From assembly GCA_963675595.2 (NCBI GenBank), contig CAXXLZ010000001.1, forward strand, positions 736,001 to 800,000: a stretch of DNA of 64,000 nucleotides, read 5' to 3'. Every line of letters starts with the position of its first letter. The first letter of the stretch is position 1. The notes under the pieces are model-generated. The model saw nothing but the letters and a program-made list of their open reading frames with translations. It was not told where the DNA came from and did no database searches. This DNA is from Thermodesulfobacteriota bacterium (lineage in GTDB: Bacteria > Desulfobacterota > Desulfarculia > JACQYL01). A program made the position numbers and the translations under genes. Shown here piece after piece: positions 34,079-60,553 of this stretch.

Positions 34079-35068
34079 GTGTTTCGTGTCAAAACGCGGA
34101 ATTACGGGCAAACCGGTTGTCGGCTTCGGCGGGAGTCGGGTCTGCGGGCAACTGCCGAGAATTCGATAAAGCCGATTCGGCGGGCGAAGGGGGCTCGTAT
34201 TCTTATCAGGGCATTTCTTCCATTTACGGTTTTGGCCTTGTTCGCCTGCCATTCTCCGGCTTGGAGCGCTCCCACGGCACGAGGCATCCCGACCGTGGAG
34301 CTCGGTTCTTCGGAAACCCCGCCTTTTTGGTCTGCCGATTTGCCCGGAAACGGAATGGGCGGTGAAATCCTGCATGCCATATCCCGCCATGGCGGCATCG
34401 AATCCATTATCGTCTTTTTCCCGACCAAACGACTGATTCGGATGAAAACCGGAAATCACCTGGGCGACCCCGAGCACTGGCCTGAGCAGAAGTTCGTTGC
34501 CGTTATTCCCATCGCCACGTTTCGATCATCCTTCTATTACTACCGGCCCAACCACAAGAAGGGCATCGTTTTTTCGGGACTGAGCGACCTGAGGGGTTAC
34601 ACCATCGGGGTGATCAAAAGGAGCATCGAGGATTTGTCCTTTTTCGAGTCGAACGGTATTCACATCGAAGAGAGTTACAAGCAGGAATCTTTGTTCAAAA
34701 AACTCCGACTGGGACGGATCGATTTGTGCGGGATGGTGGATCTTTCAGGGATATTGATCATCAGAAAACTGTTTCCGGATGAGATCGATCAGTTCGCGAG
34801 AATTCCCCTGCCTCGATCCGTGAGTGCGATTTCCATTATGATCGACGCCGAATATCCCAATGCCGCCGAAATTGCGGGCAAGTATAGAGACGGACTGGAG
34901 GCGATCCTGGCCAATGGAACGTACTCGGCGATTTTGGAGAAATACTACGGCCCGGAACATGTTCCGAAAGATTGGTTCGTTCAACTTCTGAAGTTCAGGA
35001 CCCGATACGAAAAACGAAGCGTTCCCATAACCCACAGCCCCCGACGTGTTGATGAAATTCCTCATTAA
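34079..35068 (+). CDS. Periplasmic substrate-binding protein (family 3-like); start uncertain
   Basis: ETPPF, DLRGYTIGV, KLRLGRID, ILANGTYSAILEKY; signal-like segment near 34200-34270. Confidence 0.75.
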   Translation: MFRVKTRNYGQTGCRLRRESGLRATAENSIKPIRRAKGARILIRAFLPFTVLALFACHSPAWSAPTARGIPTVELGSSETPPFWSADLPGNGMGGEILHAISRHGGIESIIVFFPTKRLIRMKTGNHLGDPEHWPEQKFVAVIPIATFRSSFYYYRPNHKKGIVFSGLSDLRGYTIGVIKRSIEDLSFFESNGIHIEESYKQESLFKKLRLGRIDLCGMVDLSGILIIRKLFPDEIDQFARIPLPRSVSAISIMIDAEYPNAAEIAGKYRDGLEAILANGTYSAILEKYYGPEHVPKDWFVQLLKFRTRYEKRSVPITHSPRRVDEIPH

Positions 35069-38000
35069 GAAGGGCATCCAAACGAAAATGGCGTTCCTGT
35101 TGATCGCCGTTATTACCGTTGTGCTCGCTTTTTTTGGGGTCTATCAGTACCTCGATATCCGGAATTCCCGCACCAGGGAGTTAAACGAACTCGCGGATTT
35201 CACGATCCGGAGGCTGGCCGAAAATCTGGTTATCCCCCTGTGGGAGGTGGATGAGCAGTGGGTGGAAGACATTATCGTCACAGAAATGTCGGACAAACGG
35301 ATTTACGCAATCTCCGTCACCGGTGAGGGCAACTTATCCGAGGCATTGAAGCGTGACAAGGCCGGGGGGATGGAAGCGCTCACCGAAGCCTTGGGCGATG
35401 GGTTCATTTCACGCCGCAGGGGGGTGCTGAAAGACAACGAACGCATTGGTTCCGTGGAGCTTTTCGTTACGCAGCGCTATATGGTGGAAGCCCTGAATCG
35501 TGAAATCGTCAAGATTATGCTGACGGTTCTGGTGCTCAATCTCATCCTCTTGGTCGCATTCTCCATAACGCTCAGAAGAACCATAACTTATCCGGTACAC
35601 CGTATTCTGAACATTGCCAACGCGATCGCGGGAGGAGATTTCAGCCGGCGTATCGATATCCGTACGGACGATGAAATCGGCCGTCTGGCGGAAGCCATCA
35701 ACGTTATGACTCGCTATCTGAAAGAAAGCTTTGAAGCGCTTCAGATCAAGAACATGGAACTCACACGACTGGACGAACTCAAGGACGAGTTCCTGGCCAA
35801 CACTTCCCACGAGCTCAGAACGCCCTTGAACGGCATTATCGGTATCGCCGATTCTCTCATCGACGGGGCTGCCGGACCATTGCCCGCAGAAGCGCGGAAG
35901 AATTTGGAGTTGATCGTCGCAGGCGGTCGGAGGTTGGCGAACCTGGTCAATGACATTCTCGACTTCTCGAAACTCAGGAACAAGGACCTAGTACTCAACA
36001 AGAAGCCCGTGGATATTCACGGGCTCACCAATGTGGTGATTTCCCTGTATCTCCCCCTGATTGAAAGTGGATCCGTGACCATTGTGAACTCCATTACCGA
36101 AAACACTACCTTTGTCTATGCCGATGAGAACCGGTTGTACCAAATAATGACGAACCTTTTAGACAATGCCGTCAAGTTTACGGAAAAAGGCACGATCACC
36201 GTTTCCGCGGAGCAAGAAGGCGACAAACTGGAGATCGTGGTGGCGGACACGGGAATCGGCATTCCCGAGAACCGGCTGGAGGCGATTTTCGAGGCCTTTG
36301 AGCAGGCCGACGGTTCCGTTGAACGGGAATACGGAGGCACCGGGCTCGGCCTATCCGTCACCAAGAGCTTGGTGGAACTCCATGGCGGCGACATCCGGGT
36401 GACTTCAAAGGTGGGAGAAGGCTCCTCCTTTGCGTTCACTTTGGACATTGCCGATTCCACCGGCGCAGATGCTCCGCGCACCGATGGGCCGCCCGTCATT
36501 ACCATGGAATCGGAGCAACGCCCCGTGGTAGGAGGGGAAGCTCGAGAACCGTGCCGGAAGACGTCCGAAGTCCGGCCGAACGATGCGCTTACAGGGATTT
36601 CAGACGCGAGGACACGAATCTTGGCCGTAGACGACGAGCCGGTCAACCTCAAGGTGATTCAAAACAATCTCGAGCTGACCGGGTTTTCCGTGTACACCGC
36701 AAATTCCGGCTTACAGGCCCTGGAAATGTGTGATGCCGTCCGGCCTGATTTGATTCTGCTGGATGTCATGATGCCCAGGCTCAACGGGTTTGAAACGGCG
36801 AGACGAATACGAATCAAATATCCCAAAGAAGTGCTTCCCATCATTTTTCTGACGGCGAAAGACCAAGTCAAAGACCTTATGGACGGCTTCGTGGTCGGCG
36901 GAAACGACTACATCATCAAACCCATATCCAAGAACGAGATTCTGGCGCGCATCGGTTTTCATCTGGACTTGAGGCGATCCCAACGGCGGCTGCAGGCGGC
37001 TGAGGAAAGCTACCGCAACTTGTTCAATGGGGCCCACGAAGGCATATTCCAAGCGGATCCGGACGGGCGCCTGATCAACGCCAACCCTTCCCTGATGGAT
37101 ATCCTGGGTTATGATGTCTCCGAGTCCATGGACTTTTCGAACATTAGTCTTCTTGAGCAGTGCTTTCCCGATCCGGAGGCGCGGGACGCCTTCCTTTCCG
37201 AATTGGCGAATGAAAGAGCCGTGATCGATTTTGAAGGCAAAGCCCAGCGTCGATCCGAGGATGAATTTTGGTTCTCCATTTCGGCCCATGTCGTGCAAGG
37301 TCAAACCGGAGAAATCGTTCGATTCGAAGGGTCGCTGGTGGACATTACCGAGCGTAAACGCAAAGAGCAGGTGGAAAGAGAAAAGGAGGCGGCGGAAGCC
37401 GCGAATCGAACCAAAGGTGCCTTCTTGGCCAACATGAGCCATGAGCTGAGAACCCCGTTGAATGCCATATTGGGATATTCACAGATATTGCAGCGAGCGA
37501 CCGGCTTGAATGAAGACCAGCAAGAAGGGGTTGCCATTGTGAAGGAGAGCGCGCGGCACCTGCTCACCCTGATCAACGATATTCTGGAGTTTTCCAAGAT
37601 CGAGGCCGGCAAACTGGTTTTGGCACCCGGGGAGATGGATCTTCATGAGTTCGTCGACGGCGTTGGCGGCTTTATGAGACTGAGCGCTCAACGGAAAGAG
37701 CTGCGGTTCGATATCGAAACGACGCCTGATACGCCACGATTCATCGTTGCCGATGAAAAACGTTTGCGTCAGGTTGTGCTCAACCTGATCGGCAATGCCG
37801 TCAAGTTCACGGAATCCGGTCGTGTTATATTTCGAGTGGAAACTATGGTACGTTCCGGGTGGGGTGAAGAGAAGTATGTGGCGCTTCGGTTCGAGGTGGA
37901 AGACACGGGGGTCGGTATCTCGAAGGACCAACTTGCCATAATTTTCAAACCGTTCGAGCAGGTGGGCGACGAACGCAGCAAAGCCTCGGGAACCGGGCTG

Positions 38001-38447
38001 GGCCTGGCCATCAGTCGCCGATTGGTCCGGTTGATGGGGGGCGATATTACCGTGACCAGCGTTCCAAACCAAGGGAGCTGCTTTTCTTTCGAGATCGTTG
38101 TCCCTGTCGCACACTCTGAAAGGGTTGTCCGAGGGGCTCAGGTCGCCGGAGGCAACGGGTATGAAGGACCGCGGCGAAAAATCACCGCGGCCCCGGAGGG
38201 ATGCCCTGATCTTCCCCCGGCTTCTTCACCCGAAATTATCCCGCCGCCTGAAGTGGATCTGGAAGCTATTCATGAGTTGGCCCTATTGGGAAAGATGCGG
38301 CCGATTCGTCGAAAGGCGGATCAGCTCAGGGAGACGGACCGTGCTTACGGAGCGTTTGCGGACCGATTGGACGAAATGGCCAAGGCGTTTGAAGACAAGC
38401 AGATCGTCCAATTCGTGGAGTCCTATATGAGGAAGGAGTCGTCATGA
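35052..38447 (+). CDS. Membrane hybrid sensor kinase: TM-HAMP-HisKA-HATPase-REC-PAS-HisKA-HATPase
   Basis: Two H-boxes (NTSHELRTPL, NMSHELRTPL), two N/G boxes (GGTGLGL, SGTGLGL), REC (VDDE, LLDVMMP), PAS. Confidence 0.93.
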   Translation: MKFLIKKGIQTKMAFLLIAVITVVLAFFGVYQYLDIRNSRTRELNELADFTIRRLAENLVIPLWEVDEQWVEDIIVTEMSDKRIYAISVTGEGNLSEALKRDKAGGMEALTEALGDGFISRRRGVLKDNERIGSVELFVTQRYMVEALNREIVKIMLTVLVLNLILLVAFSITLRRTITYPVHRILNIANAIAGGDFSRRIDIRTDDEIGRLAEAINVMTRYLKESFEALQIKNMELTRLDELKDEFLANTSHELRTPLNGIIGIADSLIDGAAGPLPAEARKNLELIVAGGRRLANLVNDILDFSKLRNKDLVLNKKPVDIHGLTNVVISLYLPLIESGSVTIVNSITENTTFVYADENRLYQIMTNLLDNAVKFTEKGTITVSAEQEGDKLEIVVADTGIGIPENRLEAIFEAFEQADGSVEREYGGTGLGLSVTKSLVELHGGDIRVTSKVGEGSSFAFTLDIADSTGADAPRTDGPPVITMESEQRPVVGGEAREPCRKTSEVRPNDALTGISDARTRILAVDDEPVNLKVIQNNLELTGFSVYTANSGLQALEMCDAVRPDLILLDVMMPRLNGFETARRIRIKYPKEVLPIIFLTAKDQVKDLMDGFVVGGNDYIIKPISKNEILARIGFHLDLRRSQRRLQAAEESYRNLFNGAHEGIFQADPDGRLINANPSLMDILGYDVSESMDFSNISLLEQCFPDPEARDAFLSELANERAVIDFEGKAQRRSEDEFWFSISAHVVQGQTGEIVRFEGSLVDITERKRKEQVEREKEAAEAANRTKGAFLANMSHELRTPLNAILGYSQILQRATGLNEDQQEGVAIVKESARHLLTLINDILEFSKIEAGKLVLAPGEMDLHEFVDGVGGFMRLSAQRKELRFDIETTPDTPRFIVADEKRLRQVVLNLIGNAVKFTESGRVIFRVETMVRSGWGEEKYVALRFEVEDTGVGISKDQLAIIFKPFEQVGDERSKASGTGLGLAISRRLVRLMGGDITVTSVPNQGSCFSFEIVVPVAHSERVVRGAQVAGGNGYEGPRRKITAAPEGCPDLPPASSPEIIPPPEVDLEAIHELALLGKMRPIRRKADQLRETDRAYGAFADRLDEMAKAFEDKQIVQFVESYMRKESS

Positions 38448-39079
38448 GCGAAGCCGAGGGAGGATCTCCGGTTATCCTTGTGATCGACGACAATCCAACC
38501 AACCTGGGTTTGATCACCCGGCATTTAGAGGACGGATCGTTTGAGGTCATGATTGCACGCGACGGGGAAGACGGCATCGCCAAAGCCTCTCACGGCCGAC
38601 CGGACCTGATACTCCTTGACGTGATGATGCCCGGTATCGATGGATTTGAAACTTGTAGAAGATTGAAAAGCGATTCCCAAACCAGGGAAATTCCCGTGCT
38701 GTTCATGACCGCCATGGACGGCGTCGAAGACAAGCTCAAAGGGTTCGAAGCGGGAGGAGTGGATTACATTGTCAAACCGATCAACGAGTACGAAACCATC
38801 GCGCGCATCAACATCCATCTCAAGATTCGAAGATTGCAGAAAGACCTTGAGGAGAAGAACCGTCGCCTCCAACAGGCTCTGGACGAGGTAAAACAACTCC
38901 AAGGCATCCTTCCGATTTGTTCCAACTGCAAGAAAATCAGAGACGATAATGGGAACTGGCACCAAATTGAAACCTACATCAGGAAGCATTCCGAAGCGCA
39001 ATTCAGTCACGGGCTTTGCAGGGAATGCGCAAAGGAGCTTTATCCCGACCTGGATATTTTCGAGGATTGGACGGATTGA
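38444..39079 (+). CDS. Response regulator with C-terminal Cys/His tail
   Basis: VIDDNP, LLDVMMP, KP; tail PICSNCKKIRDD...SHGLCREC. Confidence 0.92.
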   Translation: MSEAEGGSPVILVIDDNPTNLGLITRHLEDGSFEVMIARDGEDGIAKASHGRPDLILLDVMMPGIDGFETCRRLKSDSQTREIPVLFMTAMDGVEDKLKGFEAGGVDYIVKPINEYETIARINIHLKIRRLQKDLEEKNRRLQQALDEVKQLQGILPICSNCKKIRDDNGNWHQIETYIRKHSEAQFSHGLCRECAKELYPDLDIFEDWTD

Positions 39080-39145: not shown

Positions 39146-42142
39146 CTATGAGGCGTTCTCCGTCTCCTCGCCCACGACAATGGAGAATTCCTTCTTCGTC
39201 GTGTTGCCGGCGCTGTCCACCGCCGTCACCGTGATAAGGTACGTGCCGGATTCGAAATGGACCGTGATCTTTCCGCCCCTGCCCATGAACTGCCTCTGCT
39301 TGCCCAGAAACCACAGAATTTGGTCGTCCGCCAAACGGCCGTCCTCAAGGTCCGAACCGTGGGCCTCGAAGGTCACCGGGCCCGGCGGCAGCGTCCGATC
39401 GAGTTCGGCTTCCCCTCCCGCATAAACCCGATACTGGTTCGGATTTTCTTCCGCCACGTCCGTTTGGGGAGAAAGGTCGGGACGTATGAGGGCTATGGTG
39501 GGCGGTTTGTCTTTCACGGTCAGGCTGCCCGGGGAATAGGCGGAAACCGTGTGAAACCCGTCGGTGGCCATGATTTTGAACCTGCCTGTAGTGCCGCCGG
39601 GGAGCCTATCCATATTGACTTCGTAGGAATCGCCCTGAACATCCCAGGCCACCGGAATCCAATTGGACTTCACCTTGGAGGAGGCCGCGACATTCGGATT
39701 GTAAAGGATCACGTAGGTCAACGGGTCGTCGTCCTGGTCCTTGGACTGCCAGACCAGTTTTTGGGTGCCGTTCCATTCCATATCCCCTCGAGGCTCGGTG
39801 ACGGCGACCTTGGGGCGATGCTTCGAAACGATGATCTGGTCCAGAACCTCCTTGTCCTTGCGCACGACGATACGATCGGGGGTCCCTTTGGCGGGCAAAG
39901 CGAAACGGAAATACACAGTATCCAACGGTGAGCCTTCGCTGTCCACAAAAATCGGCGTAAAAGGAACGGTGAGACTCCTTCTGCCGCCGGGATACTGGAA
40001 TTCCAGGATGTACTCTCCTTTGGAGTCGGGTTCGACGCTCGGAAGGCCCGATAATCTCATGACCGGGTTGAGCTGCACCAATCCCTGCCTATTCATCCGA
40101 CCGGATACGTAGTAGATCATGCGCATCCGTCCCGATCCGGGAAAGCCGGAGGGGTCGGGCTCGAATACGTCGAACATGCGTGTCCAACGGTAGGGCGAGG
40201 TCCAGGCTTGGGGATGGACGTACTTGAGGTGCACGCCGTCGAGTTGAATGGCCGTCAGGTAGGACATGATTTCGGGCCAGTACGGCGGGATTACGGTGAA
40301 TCGGCGTTCGTAGAAGCTGAGGCCCAGGATATCGTATCCATTGACCCAGGGAGGGCGGGTATCGAAGCCGAATTCGCGAATGTGAAATTCGGCATAGGGG
40401 GCTTCGACTCCGCCTTCGCTTTCCTCGTAAAGACGCACCCATTCCGGGTCCACGGTGCCCTCCCCGACAGTGCCGCCGGGGACGTGTTGAGCCCAGGTTT
40501 CCGGGTCGCCGATGTTGTGGTTGATTTCATGGGCCATATTGGTCGGGTTGTACAGATAGGTACCGTCCGCCCCTTCAACGAAGGTGCCGCCCCCCGCCAC
40601 GTGTCCGCATCCGGGGGTGGTGCATAAGGGGCTTTGAGTGGCCGCCTGGGCGAGATCCGCCGTAACGGTGTAGCCGTAGATCTGCTCGGGCATGGGGTCC
40701 ACGTCCAGGGCCGTCAGAAGGTCATAATACATAATGAGATTTTCGAGAATATCGTTGCGCAGGATCGCTCCGGTCACGACTCCCGGTGCGATGTCGAAGG
40801 GCGGGTATTCCCATCGCTCGAAATTCACGTCCGGCACGGGGTAAATCGTCTTCAAGTAACTTTCGGCGGCCGCGAGATGGGTTTCGTCCACCTGGACCGG
40901 AGCCTCCCAAGAGCCCTCATTGATGGGGATCGTCACGTAGTAGGGCGTCTTGCGTGGAACGAAAAATACCTCCGCGGATCGGGACTCGATTTCCTGATCC
41001 GCATACCGTGCTTTGGCGTAGAAGATCACATTGTCCGGCTTGATCCATTCATCGGGCAGCGCGAAGTTGGCCGTGTGAAGTAGATTGTCTCGTCCCTTCC
41101 GGATTCCATACCGGGCCTCCTCGGAGAAGGGGTCTACGAAGAACCGCAACGGAAATTCGAAATCCGGGTGCGCCCAGAACTCTGCGGAAAGAGGGGAGCC
41201 GGGCAGGTCTCTCCCGTCTCTGGTCCCGTATAAGGATACGGTGACCATTTGAGGGGAATCGTCCTCCCGTACCTCCACGTAAACTCGCACCGCGGTATCC
41301 TTGCGGGCGACCAACGGCAGGGAGTTGTCACGGTGCTGGACGGCCTGGGTGACCTCCAGGGGATCGTTGATGATCCCGTCCCCGTTGTCGTCCGTGTTTT
41401 CTTGGTCGAATTGAATCACCGCGCCCCCCGTGTTGGCCACGGCCGGCACGGTCACCAATTGGATGTCCAGCATGTCGGCGAAACCGCCCTCAGGGAAACG
41501 CTCTTCAAAAGCGGGCACGTTCGAATGCACACGGACACTGAGCAGAACGTGCTCCGTGGGCAGAAACACGTTGGGATCGGCGCCGATCTCTTCCAGGTCG
41601 ATGGCCATCTCCCAAACCCGATGGTTGAAACATTCCGACGATGAGGGCGGGTCGAGCGGCACTTCCGTGGCATCATCCGCAAAACATCCGAAGCCGGCGG
41701 CCAGACTGGAATAGATGGGGGTGTCGCGCAGGGGGGCGCGAACGCCGCTGTCGGAAAGGTAGTATTGGATGCGCAGTTCGCGGGAATTGTTCCAGAGCGT
41801 GTAGATCAGGTCCACTCCGGGTGTAAAATCGCCGTTTTCATCGACATCCACGACCACCTCGATCCAGTCACCCTCGGACGAGCTTGATCTTGGATTGTCA
41901 ATGTCGTCTTCGAGCACGTCCACAAGGAGGTACAAGCGCATACGATCATTCACCGCGGTGACGAACCCGTGGTCAAAGTCGATGCTGTTGGTTGCGATGG
42001 GCCACTCACCAAAATCGATTCGGCCGTCGATCACCGGGGGTCCCACAGCGCGGCCCGCCAAGAGGTCCAGAGCGTATGCATTCGAGAACCCCCAACCCCC
42101 CAAGGCGATCAACACCGTGACGACCCTAAGCACCGATTTCAT
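39146..42142 (-). CDS. Large secreted multidomain protein, putative zinc metallopeptidase
   Basis: Signal peptide (AYA), N-terminal PPVIDG..EW (CBM9/DOMON-like), AHEINH (HEXXH), C-terminal Ig-like modules (DQDDD, SDLEDG). Confidence 0.7.
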   Translation of the reverse strand: MKSVLRVVTVLIALGGWGFSNAYALDLLAGRAVGPPVIDGRIDFGEWPIATNSIDFDHGFVTAVNDRMRLYLLVDVLEDDIDNPRSSSSEGDWIEVVVDVDENGDFTPGVDLIYTLWNNSRELRIQYYLSDSGVRAPLRDTPIYSSLAAGFGCFADDATEVPLDPPSSSECFNHRVWEMAIDLEEIGADPNVFLPTEHVLLSVRVHSNVPAFEERFPEGGFADMLDIQLVTVPAVANTGGAVIQFDQENTDDNGDGIINDPLEVTQAVQHRDNSLPLVARKDTAVRVYVEVREDDSPQMVTVSLYGTRDGRDLPGSPLSAEFWAHPDFEFPLRFFVDPFSEEARYGIRKGRDNLLHTANFALPDEWIKPDNVIFYAKARYADQEIESRSAEVFFVPRKTPYYVTIPINEGSWEAPVQVDETHLAAAESYLKTIYPVPDVNFERWEYPPFDIAPGVVTGAILRNDILENLIMYYDLLTALDVDPMPEQIYGYTVTADLAQAATQSPLCTTPGCGHVAGGGTFVEGADGTYLYNPTNMAHEINHNIGDPETWAQHVPGGTVGEGTVDPEWVRLYEESEGGVEAPYAEFHIREFGFDTRPPWVNGYDILGLSFYERRFTVIPPYWPEIMSYLTAIQLDGVHLKYVHPQAWTSPYRWTRMFDVFEPDPSGFPGSGRMRMIYYVSGRMNRQGLVQLNPVMRLSGLPSVEPDSKGEYILEFQYPGGRRSLTVPFTPIFVDSEGSPLDTVYFRFALPAKGTPDRIVVRKDKEVLDQIIVSKHRPKVAVTEPRGDMEWNGTQKLVWQSKDQDDDPLTYVILYNPNVAASSKVKSNWIPVAWDVQGDSYEVNMDRLPGGTTGRFKIMATDGFHTVSAYSPGSLTVKDKPPTIALIRPDLSPQTDVAEENPNQYRVYAGGEAELDRTLPPGPVTFEAHGSDLEDGRLADDQILWFLGKQRQFMGRGGKITVHFESGTYLITVTAVDSAGNTTKKEFSIVVGEETENAS

Positions 42143-42981
42143 GAGACTTCTCCTTTACTTCGGCTCGGGAGCACAAGCCGGGTTCGTGGTCCATGAAAGT
42201 CCCTCCGGCGATTCACCGAGGGCCGGAGGCCCGGCTGCGCGAGATGGCAGCTTCCTTGGATGGAATGCGGATTCAAGGCCTTGTTCCCGTTGTTGAAACC
42301 AACGCGCCGCAAAGCGGGATGAAGGAGCTGCTTCTCTCGTAGTCGGCGGTTGAAGGGAAATGCGTATTCGAGGTCGTGTTCGAGCATCAAGCGGAGAGAG
42401 AACCTTCTTGGGAGAAAAATCAACAATCAAAGCCAGTATATCATATTTATTTCCATCGGGAAGATGAAAAATGTGAATGGAATGAGTAGATTGTCATACA
42501 ATGTGACGGGACCCCGGCAGGTGAAGACTATTCATGCTTTTCGGACAAGCCGATGTTTGAAGAATACCGCATCACCGACAGTCACCCGAGTCCGTTCCAA
42601 GACCTTTGCCGACCCTCCCGTATGGGGCGGAAGGACGCCGACGTGGTTTGGGCATATTGGCGTCATGTTGTATTGATGAGCAATCGACTATTGTTGTTAT
42701 GAATCAGGAATACATTTTCCGTCTAGTATGGAATATGGTTGGTAGGCAGCAGCTCATAGCGTCTATTCCATCGTATGTATGTTCCATTCATGATTCACCT
42801 GGTTGATTACATTGCTGTGTTTCTTGAATGGCGTTGTACTTTGGTTTTGCATGTCTTTAGGAAAAATAAGCACTTCAAGAGCAGGGTGTCGAAGAGACCG
42901 ACACCGAACATGGGCTGGGTCGCTGAGTTGTTGACGTGTCCAACGGCCGGGGGAGAGAAGTTCGAATGCGTACGGCCGGAC

Positions 42982-45900
42982 CTACCGGGAACCGGCGCGC
43001 CGGTCTTCAATGCCCAGACGGGCCAGCAAGTCATCCGTTGGTTTGCCGTCGGCGGCGTACCCTCGCACCTTGTAGTATCGATCCAACAAGGCGTCGAGAG
43101 GGATCGTACGCCTTTGCTCGTCCGACTCCCGGTATTCGGAGAGCAGCCGCGGCGGGAGGATATCGTCTTTCCGACCGATTCCCTCGCGGGTGTTCATGTA
43201 GCGTTCCAGCACATGAATCCGTTCGCCTGCGGTGATGAACTCCTTGCAGGACAGGGGAGCGCCGGTCACTGAGGACCAGAGGTCTCGATAGAGGCCGAAA
43301 TCGATCAAACGTAACGCCGCCTTGGGTAGGTTCTGCATGATGAACCCCAGCAGAAAATGCGGTGTGTACTTGGTCAAGGGGGGTTCGAACACGTAGGCGA
43401 AGGCCGTGAATTGACAGGTCTGCAAGGAGTTCACGCAGCAGTACAGGTTTTCCAGGAATGCGATGAAGTCCGCCTTGGCGCCCACACGAAACGGATTCAG
43501 CAGGCCGAACAGCACTTCCAGGGCCACGGGATAGGCGGACAGGTGACAGCCGCCGCGATTGGCCACGGCATAGGACAGCGCCTGCCCAAAGCATCCTCTC
43601 GGATCATAGGCGGACACTTCCATTCCCTTCACGTGCACGGCGAAATCCTCACCGCCGTATTTCTCCGCCAGTGCACGGCTGCCCATGCCCATTTCCGCGC
43701 CGAAGCCGCGTGCGTATCCGATATCGTACAGCGCGTCGGCCACGCCCTTAGGTTCGCCGAACCTGAGCTCGCTCCGAATGAGCCCCTTTTCGGTGGCTTC
43801 CATCACCCAGGCGAAGGTCCCACCGGTGGAGATGGTATCCATGCCCATGTCGGCGCAGATTCGGTTCCACTCGGCGATGACGTCGCCGTCGAAGACGCCC
43901 AGGTTGGACCCGAGAAGACCCACGGTTTCATACTCGGGGATGGGAAGCGACTTGCCCTCGAAGGTTCCTTTATGGCCGCACATGATGGAGCAGGGGATGC
44001 AGAAATGCGGTTTGGAGGCGTGCTTTTCCGCGAGAGTTCGTCCGGAAAGCTTCATGCCCTCGTCGTGCCGGCCGTCCTGGAAGTTGCGAACCGGCAGGAT
44101 GTTGTTGTTATTCGTGAACTCCGTGTTGGACGCGGTGCCGAAGTTGCGCAGTACACGCGACGTCATGTCGTTGGAACGGATGTAGGATAGGGCACGTTTC
44201 TTCGCTTTGCGGAACGCGGCCTCGTTCTTGGGAAGAATCTTGGTGTAGCCGCCCTTGGCGACAATGCCTTTGACGTTTTTAGAGCCCAAGACCGCACCCA
44301 GGCCGCCGCGTCCCAGAAACCGGTCGCCGGACCTCACATTAGCAAACCGCACCCCGTTTTCGCCGGCCGGACCGATGACCAGTGCCGCAGTCCCTTTCTC
44401 GCCCGTCATTCGCGCCTGGGCTTCCGAAGTGGTCAGGCCCCACAAATCGCCGGCATCGTGAAAGGTTACCTTGTCCCGATCGACTTCGATGAATATCTTG
44501 GTTTCGGACTTTCCTTTGATGATGATGCCGTCCCAACCGGCGGTCTTCAAGGCCATGCCGAAGGGGCCTCCGCAAGAGGAAGCGGTCATGATTCCGGTGA
44601 GCGGGGATTTGGTCACCGCGGCGAAACGACCGGTGCAGGGCGCGCCGGTGCCCATGAGCACTCCGGGCATGACAACCACCATGTTTTCCTCGGATAATGG
44701 ATCGATTCCCGGCTCGACGCGATCGTAATAGAGCTTCAGGCCGAGCCCCTTGCCTCCCAGATATGCTCGGCGCTCCATTTCACTCACATGGTGGACTTGC
44801 CAGGTGCGCGTGGTCGGATCAACTTCCAGAACCCGGTTGGACGGCCCGGATTGTTCCCTCGCCCCCTCGCCGCCATAGGCTTGATTCAGCACGTCCAAGG
44901 CGTCATGCAGGTCCATCTCCACCGGGTTGAATACCAGCGAACCGTCGTTGATTGCGGCCTCCGCCACCGCTTCGAGCTGATCCCGATCCACTCCGGCTTC
45001 GGTCAGCGTCAAGGGCAAACCGCACAACTCGTGTAATGTTTCGCGCAGGTCCTCCACCAATTCGATGGTCTTGTGTGCTCTCTCCGCTTGGGGGGTCGTC
45101 GCGTAGATTTCCGGACCGCCCAGAGGGAGCAGCAGTCCTCCGATCCACTCGGCCGCCTTGGGCAGGTTGTACCTCAGTCCGTGGGGCAGAAAGATGGACA
45201 TGGCCACCCCATGCGGAACGTGAGCCAGACTTCCCACCGCGTGTCCGAGACTGTGCACCATCCCCACCATGGAATTGGAGAAGGCCGCCCCGGCCATACA
45301 GGCGGCGTTGGCCATGGCCAGCCTTGCATCGACGTCTTTTCCGTTTTTGACCGCCTTCACCAGGTTGTCCCGGATCAGGGAGATGGCGGCCAACGCGTGT
45401 GCGTCGCTGATGGGATTATTCTGCAGGCAGATGTAGGCTTCCATGGCGTGACTCAAGGCGTCCATGCCGGTGGCCGCCGTGATGCGGGGCGGCATGGTCG
45501 ACATCATACGGGTGTCCAGAACCGCCACTTTGGGCAACAGGTGATAAGAGGTGAACAGCATCTTCATGCTCTTCTTGGTATCGTTGATCACGGCCACCAG
45601 GGTCACCTCCGACCCGGTACCCGATGTGGTGGGGACAACGATCAGCGGCTTCATGGGTTTTTTCAACATCTCCGCTCCCATGAACCGGGAAAGATCGTCC
45701 GATTTCTCCGTGATGACGATATTGACCCCTTTGGCCGTGTCGATGGCCGATCCGCCTCCCACGGCAATGAGGGAATCGCAGCCGGCGGCACGGTAAATCT
45801 TGGAGATTTCGTTCACCGTTTCCACGGAAGAATCCGGTGGTGTTTCATCAAAGACGGCGCCGATGGTCACGCCGGAATCCGCAAACGCGCCTTTCACGAT

Positions 45901-46062
45901 GTCTATGAGACCGGCGCGTACCACGCCTTTGTCCGTGATGATCATGGGGCGTGCGGCGGCGAGTTGCTCCAATTCGAAGGGAAGATTCTCCAGCGCCTTA
46001 TGACCGGAAATGATCTTCACCGGGTTGTGGAACTCATAGTAGGGTGGAATCCTGGTATTCAT
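42982..46062 (-). CDS. Fusion: iron-containing alcohol dehydrogenase + aldehyde:ferredoxin oxidoreductase (AOR/WOR family)
   Basis: Approx. aa 1-395: GGGSAIDTAK, PTTSGTGSEVT, DALSHAME, VHSLGH..HG. Approx. aa 405-1026: YLGGKG, KSPLTG, GPAGEN, GRGGLGAVLGSKN, CIPCSIMC, EYET, DTIS, RGGCH, DDILPPRL. Confidence 0.92.
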   Translation of the reverse strand: MNTRIPPYYEFHNPVKIISGHKALENLPFELEQLAAARPMIITDKGVVRAGLIDIVKGAFADSGVTIGAVFDETPPDSSVETVNEISKIYRAAGCDSLIAVGGGSAIDTAKGVNIVITEKSDDLSRFMGAEMLKKPMKPLIVVPTTSGTGSEVTLVAVINDTKKSMKMLFTSYHLLPKVAVLDTRMMSTMPPRITAATGMDALSHAMEAYICLQNNPISDAHALAAISLIRDNLVKAVKNGKDVDARLAMANAACMAGAAFSNSMVGMVHSLGHAVGSLAHVPHGVAMSIFLPHGLRYNLPKAAEWIGGLLLPLGGPEIYATTPQAERAHKTIELVEDLRETLHELCGLPLTLTEAGVDRDQLEAVAEAAINDGSLVFNPVEMDLHDALDVLNQAYGGEGAREQSGPSNRVLEVDPTTRTWQVHHVSEMERRAYLGGKGLGLKLYYDRVEPGIDPLSEENMVVVMPGVLMGTGAPCTGRFAAVTKSPLTGIMTASSCGGPFGMALKTAGWDGIIIKGKSETKIFIEVDRDKVTFHDAGDLWGLTTSEAQARMTGEKGTAALVIGPAGENGVRFANVRSGDRFLGRGGLGAVLGSKNVKGIVAKGGYTKILPKNEAAFRKAKKRALSYIRSNDMTSRVLRNFGTASNTEFTNNNNILPVRNFQDGRHDEGMKLSGRTLAEKHASKPHFCIPCSIMCGHKGTFEGKSLPIPEYETVGLLGSNLGVFDGDVIAEWNRICADMGMDTISTGGTFAWVMEATEKGLIRSELRFGEPKGVADALYDIGYARGFGAEMGMGSRALAEKYGGEDFAVHVKGMEVSAYDPRGCFGQALSYAVANRGGCHLSAYPVALEVLFGLLNPFRVGAKADFIAFLENLYCCVNSLQTCQFTAFAYVFEPPLTKYTPHFLLGFIMQNLPKAALRLIDFGLYRDLWSSVTGAPLSCKEFITAGERIHVLERYMNTREGIGRKDDILPPRLLSEYRESDEQRRTIPLDALLDRYYKVRGYAADGKPTDDLLARLGIEDRRAGSR

Positions 46063-46098
46063 CGGTCCCCTCTCGTAGGCACTTCAGGAAGGTTCCTT

Positions 46099-46626
46099 CT
46101 ATTTTCCAAACGGCACGCCCAAAGCATAAATCTTGATCCGAACCCACTGCTTCCGCAGCGGCATGGGAGGGAGTCGTTTCATGATGCGCCTGTTGATGAA
46201 GGAAGGGAACAGGTGGCCCATGAGGATGTTCACGCACCGGGTAAATACCATGGCGTAGGCCAATATGCCCGCGACGCTGATGCGGTGTTCCGCGAAGCCC
46301 TGCGGGGTGCCGATCTGTGCGGTGAGCACCATGAAGGCGCTTTCCGTGTTCTTGAAGCTGATCGTGAGCTCCGCGTCTTCCGGTCCTCCGCCCAGGTATC
46401 GGAGCCCTGCGTCGCTCTTCAGGAGGGTCATGGCGGCACCACAGGGCGACACTCTCATTTGAATCCTGAATCCCTCCGGGATGGACGCGAGTTCCCGTTT
46501 CACGTCCGGGTCATGCATGGATGCCGACTGCAACCCCCGTCCCATGATGAAAAACACCATGCGGATGATCAGGGTCTTCAAACGCTTGGTCCCCGGTGGG
46601 ATCGGAGGAAATTTCAGCTCCTGCAT
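46099..46626 (-). CDS. SCP2 sterol/lipid-binding-like protein
   Basis: AELTISFKNTESAFMVLT...FAEHRISVAG resembles the SCP2 C-terminal pattern; GGAGG RBS; 36 bp upstream of the ADH-AOR start. Confidence 0.55.
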   Translation of the reverse strand: MQELKFPPIPPGTKRLKTLIIRMVFFIMGRGLQSASMHDPDVKRELASIPEGFRIQMRVSPCGAAMTLLKSDAGLRYLGGGPEDAELTISFKNTESAFMVLTAQIGTPQGFAEHRISVAGILAYAMVFTRCVNILMGHLFPSFINRRIMKRLPPMPLRKQWVRIKIYALGVPFGK

Positions 46627-46904
46627 GAAACCTCCTTGGCGGCCTCGGTTCGTCTTTTTCATGGCGATTCGTTTTATCCCACCCTTCCGTGTGGAGGAGG
46701 AGCCATTCGCGCGATCGGACGCGGCCGCAAGGGTCCGCCTTCTGGAACAAACTCAGTATACTCACAACTCCGTTCCCTGGTCACCGGTTTTCGGAGAGAG
46801 CGAGCGGTTCTACCGCGAACGCAATCCTCGGCCGTGAATCAAATCGGATGGATTGTTCACCGTCCTTTTGTGGTGACATAAGAGATATTTCCACTGTCAT
46901 GCAC

Positions 46905-46936
46905 AAAAAAGCGGGAATCTTCGTTGAGATTCCCGC
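46905..46936 (-). terminator. Intrinsic terminator after the C1 peptidase gene
   Basis: GCGGGAATCT...AGATTCCCGC stem followed by T6 on the minus strand. Confidence 0.85.
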
Positions 46937-47015
46937 CTGTCGTGAGTTATCGCTGTAATTATTTCACGAAACCCGTTGAGATTAGAGTCGGGCTCCGGAG
47001 CCTCTCAAAGAACCC

Positions 47016-49559
47016 TCATTCCATGCCCACCGGCTCGAATGTCTTCGAGATCATGATGTTCAGATCGGGCCGGCTGGACAGCACCGCCTTTGCGGAATCC
47101 GTATCCGTCACGGTGATGGTCAGCTGCTCACCCGTATGGGCCATGTGGGGAGCGGAAAAGACGTTTTTGAAAAACTCGCCCAAAAACGGGTGGAAATCCT
47201 CACCGTCGTAGGTATACACCGCCAGGGCGGAACCCACTTCATATTCCTGCAGATACAGGTTGAACCCCAGGTCCGCGCACTTCCAAATGCCCGAATGCAG
47301 GGTCTCTTTTGCGGGGAAGGTCTTGGTAATGGGTACTTGAACGGTGACGGGAGGCGTCTTCGTGTTGTCCGTGAGTACGGCGGTTCCCTGGGTGTCGGAA
47401 GAAAACACGATTTTCAAGGTTCGTTGCTGCTTCGGGTCCATGGAATCGGCCTGGAAGGTCCCGGAGTTGAACATGTCCGCCAGGAAGGCATAGAGGGAAG
47501 TGGGGTCCCCGGCGTAAATCACCACGGTGGACGCCGTGTCGTAATGCTGCACGTAAAAGTTGTAGTCCACTTTGTCCACGTTTCCCTTCCAGATGCCGGA
47601 ATAGGGAAGGTCGGCGATGCGAAGGCCGAAATGACCGGGCCCGCTGAGCACACCCAGTTCCCAGGTGTGATAGTAGAAGTCGGCGGAGCTGCCCCAAATC
47701 CAAAGGTGGTGCTGTTCCTCCCCATCCACCGCCGCGATGCTTCCGGAACTCTGCCCCAGTTCCGCCGTCACCGGGTAGTAGCCTCCGGCGGAAAGAGAGC
47801 CCATATCCTGTACGTCGAAGAGTTGTTCCGAGCCTCCATCGAAGTACAGTTTGTATTGATCCAGCCACCTCGCCCGCTCGAAAGAGGCGGATTCGTGCCC
47901 TATGTCGATATGGGTCCGGTATAGCAGCGCACCGTAATCGTGTCCGCTCCACGTCGTGGTGCCGGCTGCGAAATTGGCGTGAATCTGCGGATTGGAGGAG
48001 TTGATGAGTTCGAGCTCGAATTCCTGGCCGTTCAACTCCACGGAGTCGCCGTAAGCGTCGGGAGCACCCTCCGGGTTGTCGAAGTCGATGTATAAACGGA
48101 TCATATAACCCGCGCCGTCCAATATTTTTCCGGTCACCTCATGAGCGACGCCGTCGGACCCATAGTACGAACCCAGCCGCGCGTAGGAGTTGGCCGTGAC
48201 GTCCGAGAATTCGCCCGCCTGGACGTCCGTGGGGGGCATGGGTCTCGTTCGCCGGATGACGAGACGTCCGAGGTGTCCGTCATGATCCATATTCCATTCC
48301 CCCATCCACATGGCTTCGGGATTTTGACCCAGGAAGGGGCTCCTGACGCCGAGGACCACCGCGCCGCCGCCCGCCTGTTTCTCGATGTAATCGTAGGGAA
48401 CCCACAGGTAGGGAAGGTCGGGACCCCAGGAATTCTTGAGCAGGAGGAGCTTGCGTGTTCTGTCGTAGCCGATGATGAGGAGGGCGTGCCCGCTGACGGC
48501 ATCCTCGGTGTGGTTGGTGAAATCGCAAATGGGGTTCCCGTCGTCGTAGGTCTGTCCCGTATTACAGTCCAGATAGGGCTGATTGGCGCCACCCGGCTGG
48601 GACGCCGGGGGAGCGGCCTCCCAATTCAATCCGATGTAGACCTCCTTCTGATCCGCCAGGGTGTCCTCGATCAGCGAACTGTCCCTGGCCTCCGTCATGG
48701 TAAGAATCAACACACGTGTTGGTCCGTATTCGGCATTCTTCCGAGCGTCCAGGGGGATGAGCCGTTCATCGAATTCGTACGCGTCCAGCGCTTCCTGAGT
48801 CAGGGTGATTGCGGTTGCATTGCCCTTGTCGTCGAACTGATCGCACACCATACCCGAGTCCGTAACGATCGTGGCCCGGTCGGCGTCGCCGTGATAGGTC
48901 CCGTACTTATAGAGCTGGACATTGGCTCTGCCGAAATAAGGGGCATACTTCTCCAGAGGCAGGAACAGTCCGTTGGTGGCCGCCAAGGCGTGCCCGGGCA
49001 ACGTATGATCGGTATGGGTTCCGCACTGGGAAGTCCAGTTGTCGTGCATGAGTTCCGGCCGGTACGAGGCGTGGCTGGTGAAGACAATATGGATGAAATA
49101 TTCTTCCGAAAGATCGAACTCCTCACAACCCGCGTAACATTCAGGCGTGACGCAAATGAGGCTGCAATCGTTGGTGATGCCGTATTCCTGCCAGCGGGTC
49201 CATCCATCGGTGTACCGGTTCAGTTCGTGCAACCCATAAGTGCGGACGTACGCCGCCTCGAGGGCGCCGAGAAAGGCGAAGGACGGGCAGGAGCCGCGGT
49301 TGTTCTGGTCCTTCACTTCCGTTTGATAGGCCTTCAAGTCCAAATAGTCCGCGCTCGCGGGAGCCAGGGAAGCTCTAAATTCTTCCAACAGTTTCTTCTG
49401 TTCGGGCGAGACGGAGCGAATGGTCAGGCTTTCGGCGGGAACCAGGGTCGGCGGATCGTCGTATGCTCCCACGGCCTTGCCGGAATGGGCCTGTCGGGTC
49501 GGAACCAATGTGCAGAGCATTGCGACGACAAGAAGCAATCTCACAAGACCTGTGCGCAT
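47016..49559 (-). CDS. Secreted C1-family (papain-like) cysteine peptidase with C-terminal tandem repeat
   Basis: Signal peptide; VKDQNNRGSCPSFA (Q/C), DLSEEY, GHALLIIGY (H), KNSWG (N). Confidence 0.88.
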   Translation of the reverse strand: MRTGLVRLLLVVAMLCTLVPTRQAHSGKAVGAYDDPPTLVPAESLTIRSVSPEQKKLLEEFRASLAPASADYLDLKAYQTEVKDQNNRGSCPSFAFLGALEAAYVRTYGLHELNRYTDGWTRWQEYGITNDCSLICVTPECYAGCEEFDLSEEYFIHIVFTSHASYRPELMHDNWTSQCGTHTDHTLPGHALAATNGLFLPLEKYAPYFGRANVQLYKYGTYHGDADRATIVTDSGMVCDQFDDKGNATAITLTQEALDAYEFDERLIPLDARKNAEYGPTRVLILTMTEARDSSLIEDTLADQKEVYIGLNWEAAPPASQPGGANQPYLDCNTGQTYDDGNPICDFTNHTEDAVSGHALLIIGYDRTRKLLLLKNSWGPDLPYLWVPYDYIEKQAGGGAVVLGVRSPFLGQNPEAMWMGEWNMDHDGHLGRLVIRRTRPMPPTDVQAGEFSDVTANSYARLGSYYGSDGVAHEVTGKILDGAGYMIRLYIDFDNPEGAPDAYGDSVELNGQEFELELINSSNPQIHANFAAGTTTWSGHDYGALLYRTHIDIGHESASFERARWLDQYKLYFDGGSEQLFDVQDMGSLSAGGYYPVTAELGQSSGSIAAVDGEEQHHLWIWGSSADFYYHTWELGVLSGPGHFGLRIADLPYSGIWKGNVDKVDYNFYVQHYDTASTVVIYAGDPTSLYAFLADMFNSGTFQADSMDPKQQRTLKIVFSSDTQGTAVLTDNTKTPPVTVQVPITKTFPAKETLHSGIWKCADLGFNLYLQEYEVGSALAVYTYDGEDFHPFLGEFFKNVFSAPHMAHTGEQLTITVTDTDSAKAVLSSRPDLNIMISKTFEPVGME

Positions 49560-49735
49560 GGTATGGACTCCTTTATGCTTGGGTGAGATTCGGGAAGGCA
49601 TCCTTGAAAGTCGATGCCTTTCATTGCATTATCCTGCGGGGCTTCTTCCCTTATTTCTCCCCAATAGATTGCTGAATCATTGCGTCTTTCCGGTACTTGG
49701 CCCGGAAACCGTACCGAACCTTCGTGATTGACTTA

Positions 49736-53446: not shown

Positions 53447-54550
53447 TCAGGCAAACTTGTCATAGAATATTTGTTCCTTGGGAACGCCCATTTGGGTAAG
53501 CTGCTGCTCGACGGACTCCACCATGGCCGGATTTCCGCAGATATAGGCTTCCACATTGGAGGGGTCCTTAACGAGATCGGGGATGACATCGGTAACACGA
53601 CCCCGCGGGCCTTCCCATTGCTCATGTTCTTCGGGTCTGGAAAGGGTGTGTACGACCTTGAGATCGGGAATCCGTTCTTTCAGCCGGTTCAGTTCCTCGA
53701 GGTAAAACAGGTCTCCCATACGGCGGGCCCCGAAGACCAGAAAGACTTTGCGGCGAATGTTTTCGTCCGCCAAGTGGTGCAGGATGGACATGATGGGGGC
53801 GAGTCCGGAGCCTGTGGCCACCAACAGAACATCCCGCTCCGAATCTCTGAGGTAGAATTCTCCATGGGGACCGTTAAGAAGCGTTTCGTCCCCTTCGTTC
53901 AGATGTTCATGCACGTAAGTCGTGGCGATGCCTTGGGGCACACGCGTAATGATCAGGTGAATTTCTTCGCCTTTGCTCGCCGGTGAAGCGATGGAATAGG
54001 CGCGATAAACCGGCTCGTCCGAATCTCCGTATTCGGGGATTCGAAGCTGGACGAACTGGCCGGCCTTGAATTCCATCACGGGCGGATCGACGAGTTTCAA
54101 GCGGACCTCCTTCATATCCTCGGCGATGTCTCGAAGTCCCGATATCCTGGCCGTGAACTCCTTAATGTAAAACAACTCGGGTGGAATGTGGATGGCCAGA
54201 TCGTTGCGAACCTTCACCTGGCAGGAAAGTCGAACTTGGTCCTCGATTTCCTTCTTGTCCAGATAAGGCGTCTCCGTGGGCAAGAGGGGACCGGCTCCTT
54301 CGGAAACCTTGACCTTGCAGAGACCGCAGCTTCCTCTCCCGCCGCAAGCCGAAGGAATGAAAATACCTTCGTCGGTCAATATCCCCAGCAGGTGTCCTCC
54401 CCCTTGGACCACCAGTTCCCGATCGCCTTCATTGATGGAAATCCTGCACTCTCCATAATCTGCGAAATAGGAATCGGCGGTTTCGAGGCACAAAGCGAGG
54501 AACCCCGCGAGTGCGCTCAATGCCAGAATTCCTACGAAAACACTCACCAT
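53447..54550 (-). CDS. nqrF: NqrF-like [2Fe-2S]/FAD/NAD(P)H reductase with N-terminal membrane anchor
   Basis: IPSACGGRGSCGLC, RLSCQVKV, RAYSIAS, GPHG, ATGSGLAP, YICG, YDKF. Confidence 0.8.
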   Translation of the reverse strand: MVSVFVGILALSALAGFLALCLETADSYFADYGECRISINEGDRELVVQGGGHLLGILTDEGIFIPSACGGRGSCGLCKVKVSEGAGPLLPTETPYLDKKEIEDQVRLSCQVKVRNDLAIHIPPELFYIKEFTARISGLRDIAEDMKEVRLKLVDPPVMEFKAGQFVQLRIPEYGDSDEPVYRAYSIASPASKGEEIHLIITRVPQGIATTYVHEHLNEGDETLLNGPHGEFYLRDSERDVLLVATGSGLAPIMSILHHLADENIRRKVFLVFGARRMGDLFYLEELNRLKERIPDLKVVHTLSRPEEHEQWEGPRGRVTDVIPDLVKDPSNVEAYICGNPAMVESVEQQLTQMGVPKEQIFYDKFA

Positions 54551-54560
54551 GGATCGGACC

Positions 54561-55154: not shown

Positions 55155-55164
55155 GGGAAATCCT

Positions 55165-55800: not shown

Positions 55801-55816
55801 AATTGACCTCTTGACC

Positions 55817-59120: not shown

Positions 59121-59197
59121 GAAATGCTACCTCCCGTGTTTGAATACCTCGCTCAAAACCGTTCCTGATCCGATGCGGATCGGCGGCAAGCCGCGAA

Positions 59198-60541: not shown

Positions 60542-60553
60542 GGGTTCTCCTCG

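Follow-up and report, generated by a model that had tools for sequence, protein, structure and literature searches.

A single-chain iron-type alcohol dehydrogenase/aldehyde oxidoreductase fusion and its predicted SCP2-fold partner in a Thermodesulfobacteriota genome

The stretch analysed here, which we call the window, comprises 64,000 nucleotides of a Thermodesulfobacteriota genome (positions 736,001-800,000 of contig CAXXLZ010000001.1, assembly GCA_963675595.2); all coordinates below are window positions unless a locus is named. On its minus strand a single uninterrupted frame of 1026 codons (42982-46062) encodes P0001, in which an iron-type alcohol dehydrogenase (Fe-ADH, or ADH) is joined to an aldehyde oxidoreductase (AOR), and the same strand carries just upstream a gene for a 175-residue protein, P0124 (46099-46626), whose predicted fold is that of SCP2. 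The ADH half (residues 1-396; 44875-46062) is covered by PF00465 and PF25137 (Fe-ADH at 14-184, E 7.9e-46; ADH_Fe_C at 195-396, E 1.9e-48), and the AOR half (residues 410-1018; 43009-44835) by PF02730 and PF01314 (AFOR_N at 410-604, E 1e-69; AFOR_C at 620-1018, E 6.8e-110). All four matches run nearly end-to-end on their profiles and lie far above the cut-offs. Alignment and motif mapping place a 13-residue linker, GGEGAREQSGPSN (residues 397-409; 44836-44874), between the last ADH helix and the first AOR strand. A first-pass annotation, made from the letters of the window alone, had described the uninterrupted 1026-residue frame, a short linker and a gene 36 nt further upstream, and the locus is laid out as it said: exactly 36 nt separate the end of the SCP2-like gene (46099) from the ATG of the fusion (46062). 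The likeliest start of the SCP2-like gene is the ATG at 46626, which is preceded by AAGGAGG at 5 nt and coincides with the end coordinate of that annotation; a longer frame opens at 46662.

The linker is crossed by contigs of two studies with 0 indels, which is the kind of sequence support that the first-pass annotation had proposed to look for. A 17,511-bp Logan contig of run X1, which may be the source sample, spans 44348-46800 with 0 differences, and a 7,464-bp Logan contig of run X3, from another study, spans 43037-46800 with 69 substitutions and 0 gaps. The fusion frame appears to be kept in this strain, which is ~2% diverged (the frame of X3 was judged from 40 of the ~70 listed substitutions together with the gap count, and a nonsense change is conceivable among the remainder). 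Furthermore, P0005, a protein from a JGI metagenome, is 82% identical to P0001 over the full length and likewise fused, with a linker that is divergent in sequence and 3 residues shorter. Since the contig of the other study spans the junction without indels and the 82%-identical P0005 is fused as well, we regard the ADH-AOR junction as genuine. For runs X7 and X10, coverage is limited to 10/30 and 7/30 bins of the fusion gene and is uninformative on the junction. Short, low-depth "joints" in X1 (sides of 21-32 letters) appear to be cross-matches to AOR and ADH paralogs of other organisms and were not used.

Both Pfam matches of the ADH half (156 and 165 bits) clear their gathering cut-offs (31.3 and 27). 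Among solved structures this half is similar to group III enzymes, namely methanol, 1,3-propanediol and lactaldehyde dehydrogenases (E 1e-58 to 1e-67). It keeps GGGS (102-105), TTSGTGSE (145-152), D201, H205, H270 and H284. We take the last four to be the metal ligands from the numbering of FucO, whose spacing they match, and D44, in ITDKG, is presumably a sign of NAD over NADP. The NAD loop and the four ligands are invariant in nine fused proteins (alignment A2) and in 12/12 SCP2-adjacent orthologs (alignment A3); in a 20-row fused set H270 is nearly invariant. With its domains, loop and ligands present, this half reads as an iron-type (group III) ADH whose catalytic residues are apparently intact, as the first-pass annotation had claimed in calling it complete. 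None of the NCBIfam equivalogs (ErcA, FucO, GbsB, EutG and others) reached its cut-off with the ADH half. The best match, ErcA, scored 296 bits against a cut-off of 550, and an ErcA-like regulatory role was rejected as a family assignment.

The AOR half scores 235 and 368 bits with AFOR_N and AFOR_C and aligns with the AFOR of Clostridium autoethanogenum (9g7j, E 4e-110) and the AOR of Pyrococcus furiosus (1aor, E 9.5e-109). Its cluster cysteines C688, C691, C695 and C883 align with the CxxCxxxC motif and the later Cys of 1aor and are invariant in 24 fused proteins. Section 13 of PMC12096430 gives the conserved second shell of AORs as Glu311, Tyr312, Glu313, Thr243, Tyr427, His448 and Tyr452; in our alignment all seven are matched in P0001, by E710, Y711, E712, T643, Y819, H840 and Y844. 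The two domains, four cysteines and seven second-shell residues bear out the earlier description of a full AOR-family enzyme, and every motif named there could be located: GGGS and D201/H205/H270/H284 in the ADH half, and CxxCxxxC (688-695) with C883, EYET (710-713), DTIS (742-745) and RGGCH (836-840) in the AOR half.

Some features set the AOR half apart from the solved AORs. An insertion of ~35 residues (890-924; 43291-43395, minus strand), visible as an alignment break against 9g7j, 1aor and 9mqx, is predicted to be helical; it is common to stand-alone relatives and fused clade B and is absent in the P0140 group. S842 stands where 1aor has K450. The pterin-contact motifs, which we take from the description of 1aor to be DxxGxD and DxxGxC, read ADMGMD and NSLQTC in P0001, variants that are also seen in stand-alone relatives (P0006, for example). 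Because stand-alone relatives carry the same differences, these appear to mark a subfamily and not decay. We infer that the metal of the AOR half is tungsten rather than molybdenum, and both halves of P0001 are apparently intact and active.

P0124, the product of the upstream gene, has no match in Pfam (E<=10, PF02036 included) or NCBIfam. An AlphaFold2 (AF2) model built from 6 sequences has a predicted local distance difference test score (pLDDT) of 71, rising to 82-90 over residues 21-90. When this model was compared with the PDB by Foldseek, 29 matches were obtained at E<=1e-3, and the top ones were all SCP2 (E 5.7e-6), led by UbiJ-SCP2, human SCP2, SCP-2L, the Thermus SCP2-like protein TT1886 and the SCP2 domains of alkylsulfatases. 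With VIA-align, run against 48,161 chains, SCP2 proteins again took all of the top 9 positions (Z 7.8-10.4; 98-117 residues aligned at a root-mean-square deviation of 2.9-3.9). Look-alikes in the ESM Atlas include several clusters of "hypothetical protein", in one of which 11% of the members carry PF02036. Altogether, P0124 is predicted to have the SCP2 fold. The term "SCP2-like", used in the first-pass annotation, thus holds for the predicted fold (Foldseek and VIA-align) and not for sequence models, where neither Pfam nor NCBIfam gives a match. The family conserves a C-terminal KRLPPMP tail, and its strongest motif is AFAEHR..V.G.

A word-indexed search returned 5 relatives of the SCP2-like protein, an undercount in view of later scans, which found the gene in 33 of the 401 genomes of an even sample of the window's phylum, the window genome included (24/340 among high-quality genomes). 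In 30/30 loci returned from the 33 positive genomes, an Fe-ADH-family gene lies directly downstream; 3 of these 30 ADHs are incomplete, one being cut by a contig end and two lying over two frames. The first-pass annotation had named conservation of the upstream gene as a check, and on this count the gene adjoins the ADH at every locus. Among the 30 loci, ADH and AOR share one frame only at the window locus. When 5 kb on each side were inspected, an AOR was near the SCP2-like gene in 11/20 loci, placed downstream, divergently or fused to an SCP2-like part.

The pairing reaches beyond the phylum. A scan with the SCP2-like alignment, taking one genome per species, gave 13 loci in Spirochaetota, Desulfamplus, Syntrophaceae, Anaerolineae, Bacillota, Hydrothermia, WOR-3 and unnamed bacteria. 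In 11/13 of these other-phyla loci the SCP2-like gene is directly followed by an ortholog of the ADH half at 54-64% identity (in L018 over two frames), and an AOR gene follows the ADH in 4/13; in L010, L011, L014 and L018 the ADH and AOR genes were placed by tblastn and hidden Markov models. At L008 a NAD-type aldehyde dehydrogenase (PF00171) occupies the AOR's place after the ADH, L019 has an AOR followed by the SCP2-like gene and no ADH, and L020 has neither ADH nor AOR. No extra neighbour gene is common to most loci of the module. The SCP2-like protein goes with this ADH subfamily in both its fused and its unfused form, and represents a new, widespread family that has no Pfam model and whose partner is now known. 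Two side observations concern these genes. In L018, L050 (the same place as L078) and L052 the ADH beside the SCP2-like gene occupies two frames, through a possible frameshift or sequencing error. At L076 (1267-3285, minus strand) a 673-residue frame has the SCP2-like domain as its C-terminus, and its N-terminal ~500 residues match no Pfam family nor the AOR profile.

The origin of the single chain can be traced by comparison with split operons. G025, a genome of the same class (locus L007/L097), has three genes whose products are 50% (SCP2-like), 63% (ADH) and 59% (AOR) identical to the window parts. Its adh ends in TAA and is followed by a 20-nt spacer and then aor; the linker of P0001 replaces this stop codon, the spacer and the first nine AOR codons, and the linker stretch GAGGGGGCGAGGGAA might derive from the former ribosome-binding site of aor. 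Across the split operons (L007/L097, L009, L010, L011 and L017) the spacer between adh and aor measures 12-33 nt. The fusion is a rare, derived form of an SCP2-like/adh/aor split operon, of which the three G025 genes, in the same order, are an example. The first-pass annotation had allowed that its reading would suffer if relatives always encoded two genes with a stop at the linker: most relatives are indeed split, yet two further independent fused sequences exist.

To characterize the pairing at the protein level, we predicted the complex of the ADH half and the SCP2-like protein from alignments of 12 and 19, respectively, in three runs, alongside three controls. The complex scored 0.68 (runs 0.67-0.71), against 0.00 for all three controls; a mark of 0.68 is met by 116/157 solved complexes and 2/215 mismatched pairs, counts that are approximate here since our own alignments were supplied. 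At least 96% of contacts are common to the runs, and the pLDDT of the partner is at least 85. On the ADH side the predicted interface involves residues 6-10, 125-132, 166, 169, 212-214 and 369-384; on the SCP2-like side it involves residues 108-127, including the AFAEHR..V.G motif. In an AF2 model of full-length P0001 (pLDDT 85.7; predicted template modelling score, pTM, 0.65), the few poorly defined segments include 1-10 and 376-378. Because the interface at 6-10 and 369-384 overlaps these segments, the models fit an ordering of ADH residues 1-10 and 376-378 upon binding of the SCP2-like protein. Together these predictions suggest that the SCP2-like protein physically binds the ADH half.

Fusions between these parts have arisen more than once. 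A profile of the nine fused proteins was searched against 5.8 billion sequences, and among the best 120 matches 22 clusters have both ADH and AOR domains. An exhaustive search of 50% representatives yielded 3 junction-spanning matches among the best 150 and added two more clusters, bringing the total to at least 24; the order is ADH-AOR in 20 of the 24 and AOR-ADH in the other 4. Two fusion clusters have NCBI names, from Oscillospiraceae and Thorarchaeota metagenome-assembled genomes, and are annotated only as "iron-containing alcohol dehydrogenase, partial". On an AOR tree of 77 rows (9 fused halves, 22 of the 109 stand-alone AORs of one search, and 46 sequences from the 50%-representative search), at least 4 changes in fusion state have to be assumed, each of them required by well-supported branches. 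On an ADH tree of 50 rows, from which 9 near-duplicate fused proteins were left out, the window protein and P0005 fall inside the SCP2-adjacent ADH clade and the remaining 13 fused ADH halves group apart. As it sits in the SCP2-adjacent clade, away from the other fused ADHs, the window fusion is an independent event. ADH/AOR fusions are thus polyphyletic, and they have gone unnoticed in public databases.

Close relatives of the other fused group (64-80% identity) are split in 14/14 metagenome loci with both halves visible. In L034 and L035, which hold relatives of that group, a single in-frame stop divides adh and aor, and the AOR comes first in six of these relatives' loci. At L021 (261-3873) a 145-residue polyferredoxin gene lies between adh and aor, with overlapping stop and start codons at 1535-1538 and 1969-1972; its product is likely a dedicated electron acceptor for the AOR.

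The SCP2-like part takes part in fusions as well. Eleven AOR proteins of 725-861 residues (P0148, P0101, P0113, P0360, P0132, P0144, P0141, P0323, P0325, P0319 and P0134) carry a C-terminal SCP2-like domain that is invisible to Pfam, which explains the "long AORs" among the matches. Such proteins are encoded at loci L025, L026, L060/L081 and L088, and in L025, L026 and L081 an ADH of the window's type follows the AOR-SCP2-like fusion. As a separate observation, other AOR fusions are found among P0248, P0222 and P0169, with an OMP-decarboxylase/HUMPS-family domain (992 and 826 residues) or with a C-terminal 2x[4Fe-4S] ferredoxin domain (853 residues).

We give slightly better than even credence to the following reading: the SCP2-like protein works with a single chain made of a NAD-type Fe-ADH and a ferredoxin-dependent, tungsten-type AOR, and together they take a poorly soluble alcohol to the acid. 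The chain would have arisen when the stop codon and short spacer between adh and aor of an older SCP2-like/adh/aor operon were lost. The SCP2-like subunit would dock where the ADH has its N-terminal PPYYEF segment and last helices, and would hand over or shield the poorly soluble alcohol. The ADH would then oxidise the alcohol to the aldehyde with NAD+, a step unfavourable alone, and the tethered AOR would oxidise the aldehyde to the acid and reduce a separate ferredoxin, thereby pulling the reaction. In energetic terms, forming the aldehyde with NAD+ is uphill for the ADH, and oxidation of the aldehyde to the acid by the AOR, with ferredoxin as acceptor, is strongly downhill. A tethered AOR would hold the reactive aldehyde at a low level, and the aldehyde may be channelled between the halves. 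The statement in the first-pass annotation that the enzyme couples NAD(H) with ferredoxin is tenable only if it means that one reaction follows the other; we see no sign that electrons pass directly from one cofactor to the other.

The direction proposed here is the oxidative one, which our analysis favours because a NAD-type aldehyde dehydrogenase can replace the AOR (L008) and because of the company the module keeps: L008 and L009 are flanked by acyl-CoA synthetase genes, L012 and L015 have FadR-type regulators nearby, and L017 has a DegV/TetR pair in its vicinity. The same enzyme might run in reverse, so that a ferredoxin-driven AOR reduces a (fatty) acid and the ADH makes the alcohol, for ether lipids, for wax esters or as an electron sink. 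Passages of PMC10816221 and PMC12727526 describe such an acid-to-alcohol route by separate AOR and ADH in acetogens and Thermoanaerobacter, and lipid-building neighbours, namely PlsY and MlaE (L016), an acyltransferase (L081) and an acyl-ACP thioesterase (L080, L093), are also compatible with it. We nevertheless consider this reversal unlikely, as the NAD(P)-type aldehyde dehydrogenase of L008 is in practice acid-directed, and the acyl-CoA synthetases and FadR-type regulators fit catabolism.

As for the substrate, the predicted SCP2 fold and scattered lipid and isoprenoid neighbours suggest that it is hydrophobic. These neighbours are two TetR genes with an acyl-ACP thioesterase (L080, L093), DXS and IspH (L094), a polyprenyl synthase (L088), CrtI-like and FAD-reductase genes (L078, L092) and a thiolase (L095); many loci show no lipid or isoprenoid genes. 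It seems improbable that the enzyme carries out ordinary short-chain oxidation (ethanol, propanol, acetaldehyde) and that the SCP2-like protein is a structural or regulatory accessory that carries no lipid. Gene pairs of ADH and AOR for ethanol use in sulfate reducers are described in part of PMC6491731, and the nearest solved relatives of the ADH use C1-C3 alcohols (methanol, 1,3-propanediol, lactaldehyde), but every top structural match of the SCP2-like protein is a lipid-binding fold, the protein is strictly paired with this ADH subfamily and also fused to AORs, and a soluble C2 substrate needs no carrier. Finally, it is very hard to believe that the chain is an assembly or sequencing merge, or a non-functional read-through after recent loss of a stop: relatives are mostly split, and in L034 and L035 one base change would suffice to merge the genes, but the X3 contig shows the same frame with no indel over 3.8 kb, the fused P0005 comes from a separate metagenome, and the linker has diverged while all catalytic residues checked were retained in both halves.

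Returning to a single chain that oxidises a poorly soluble alcohol, several points weigh against it. AORs are reversible, and the sequence does not in itself fix the direction. The second pterin-contact motif, before the fourth cysteine, reads NSLQTC where solved AORs have DSxGLC. The pTM of 0.65 leaves the relative placement of the two halves unsettled, and the P0124 model is of moderate confidence (pLDDT 71), with 1/5 models exceeding 50. G149 has an AOR-SCP2-like protein with no ADH of the window's type within 5 kb. Neighbourhoods of the module are heterogeneous, and lipid or isoprenoid genes occur in some loci only; in the window, the neighbours of the fusion are secreted proteins unrelated to lipid use. 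No ferredoxin gene adjoins the fusion locus, unlike L021, and no RNA run is listed as containing the fusion stretch.

A wider hypothesis, to which we lean less than halfway, is that a physical three-part machine of SCP2-like protein, Fe-ADH and tungsten AOR operates across many anaerobic phyla. The carrier would pick up a membrane-bound or otherwise insoluble alcohol, fatty or isoprenoid, and plug into the ADH, the aldehyde would be retained in the complex, and the electrons would be shared between NADH and ferredoxin; the chain in the window would be one of several independent weldings of the parts, the others being ADH-AOR, AOR-ADH and AOR-SCP2. If this is true, the window form would offer the easiest expression target for acid/alcohol biocatalysis with greasy substrates, and the machine would help to explain how anaerobes deal with long-chain or isoprenoid alcohols.

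The surroundings of the two-gene unit are as follows. A consensus scan alone gave a sigma-70-like promoter candidate for the unit (46755-46784, minus strand; 9/12 matches), which is not evidence of function, and a terminator-like hairpin of the preceding gene (46909-46938) is likewise a consensus match only. An Rfam scan of 42000-47100 at E<=1 returned two chance-level matches only and no Moco/Wco riboswitch or other leader element. No transporter or regulator gene in the window is adjacent to the unit. It is flanked by a gene for a 998-residue protein (39146-42142, minus strand) that has an N-terminal hydrophobic segment and no significant family and is apparently secreted, and by one for an 861-residue protein (47016-49601, minus strand) that has an N-terminal hydrophobic segment and a weak match to Peptidase_C1 (papain family) at residues 81-122 and likewise looks secreted. 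The 840 bp downstream of the fusion (42143-42981) hold no convincing gene, have a G+C content of ~0.48-0.50 compared with ~0.59 around them, and gave no Rfam match and, by consensus scan, no terminator-like site for the fusion gene.

Further out, 35046-39079 (plus strand) encodes a 1133-residue hybrid sensor kinase (two HisKA/HATPase sets, HAMP, PAS and receiver) followed by a 211-residue response regulator. The ranges 53447-57435 and 57672-61561, both on the minus strand, contain genes for a Nqr/Rnf-type membrane complex (Fer2/FAD/NAD subunit, Rnf-Nqr, FMN_bind, NQR2_RnfD_RnfE) side by side with genes for 2-oxoacid dehydrogenase E1-beta, E2 and E3. Outside the window the same genome has ~8 further AOR paralogs and a second Fe-ADH gene that is not fused and has an AOR gene directly behind it at a distance of 176 nt (G000:C2:672024-674820); the products of this pair are 33-35% identical to the corresponding fusion halves, and the pair is unrelated to the fusion.

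The first-pass annotation had called the enzyme possibly uncharacterised. In the full-text literature (subscription journals being outside its scope) we found no natural ADH/AOR fusion and no pairing of SCP2 with Fe-ADH or AOR, which agrees with that suggestion; the 2025 review of tungsten enzymes, PMC12096430, contains none of the words "fused", "fusion" and "SCP2". Where "AOR-ADH" appears in print it denotes the two-enzyme pathway, and in the relevant passages of PMC10816221 and PMC6491731 "fused" refers to tags or other genes; these were set aside. The enzyme families and their chemistry are known, and the single chain, its repeated origins and the conserved carrier-like partner are not described in the searchable literature.

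The AOR plus ADH route is under development for the production of biofuels and fine chemicals. To our knowledge it is the only biological route between acid and alcohol that is free of both coenzyme A (CoA) and ATP, and all cases studied use separate enzymes. A natural single chain and recurrent fusions among ADH, AOR and SCP2-like parts argue for one working unit in nature. The window fusion is a candidate for a ready-made bifunctional catalyst, and its predicted carrier subunit might open the same chemistry to substrates of poor solubility.

Among described systems, the closest is the two-enzyme route of C. autoethanogenum and Thermoanaerobacter sp. X514, which, as set out in parts of PMC12727526 and PMC10816221, uses the same enzyme families for CoA-free chemistry between acid, aldehyde and alcohol, the AOR working with ferredoxin and the ADH with NAD(P)H. 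It differs in that the proteins are separate, the genes are usually not neighbours and those passages report no SCP2-like partner; its AORs are ~40% identical to the AOR half of P0001 (9g7j) and are without the 35-residue insertion. The split operons of the relatives have the same order of parts (SCP2-like 44-50%, ADH 54-64% and AOR 38-60% identical) and are themselves uncharacterised. The AOR half aligns over its full length with 1aor and 9g7j at E ~1e-109 and shares the conserved cysteines and second shell; P0001 alone among the three carries an N-terminal ADH, besides the insertion at 890-924, NSLQTC and S842 (K450 in 1aor). An AorABC-type, NAD-linked AOR as in Aromatoleum aromaticum was rejected, as no polyferredoxin or FAD/NAD subunit genes are adjacent; the fourth-best solved relative of the AOR half is 8c0z.

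The comparison with AdhE, drawn in the first-pass annotation for a two-step alcohol/aldehyde enzyme that works without CoA, is a fair one. Like AdhE, P0001 joins an Fe-ADH domain to an aldehyde-converting domain, and its ADH part matches the AdhE chains 8uhw and 6tqh as well as the AdhE model NF010378 (profile positions 460-869) at 253 bits, far under the cut-off of 951. The partner of the ADH in AdhE is an N-terminal CoA-acylating aldehyde dehydrogenase of the PF00171 type, whereas in P0001 it is a C-terminal pterin/[4Fe-4S] AOR. Pfam finds no Aldedh domain in P0001; with that defining domain absent, P0001 was not assigned to AdhE and the likeness is one of analogy only. On the carrier side, the SCP2 domains of SdsA1 (2cfu), MFE-2 (1ikt) and UbiJ (6h6o), which present a greasy substrate to a catalytic partner, share the fold predicted for P0124. 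P0124 differs from them in having no detectable sequence similarity to PF02036, an extra KRLPPMP tail and, as its partner, an Fe-ADH.

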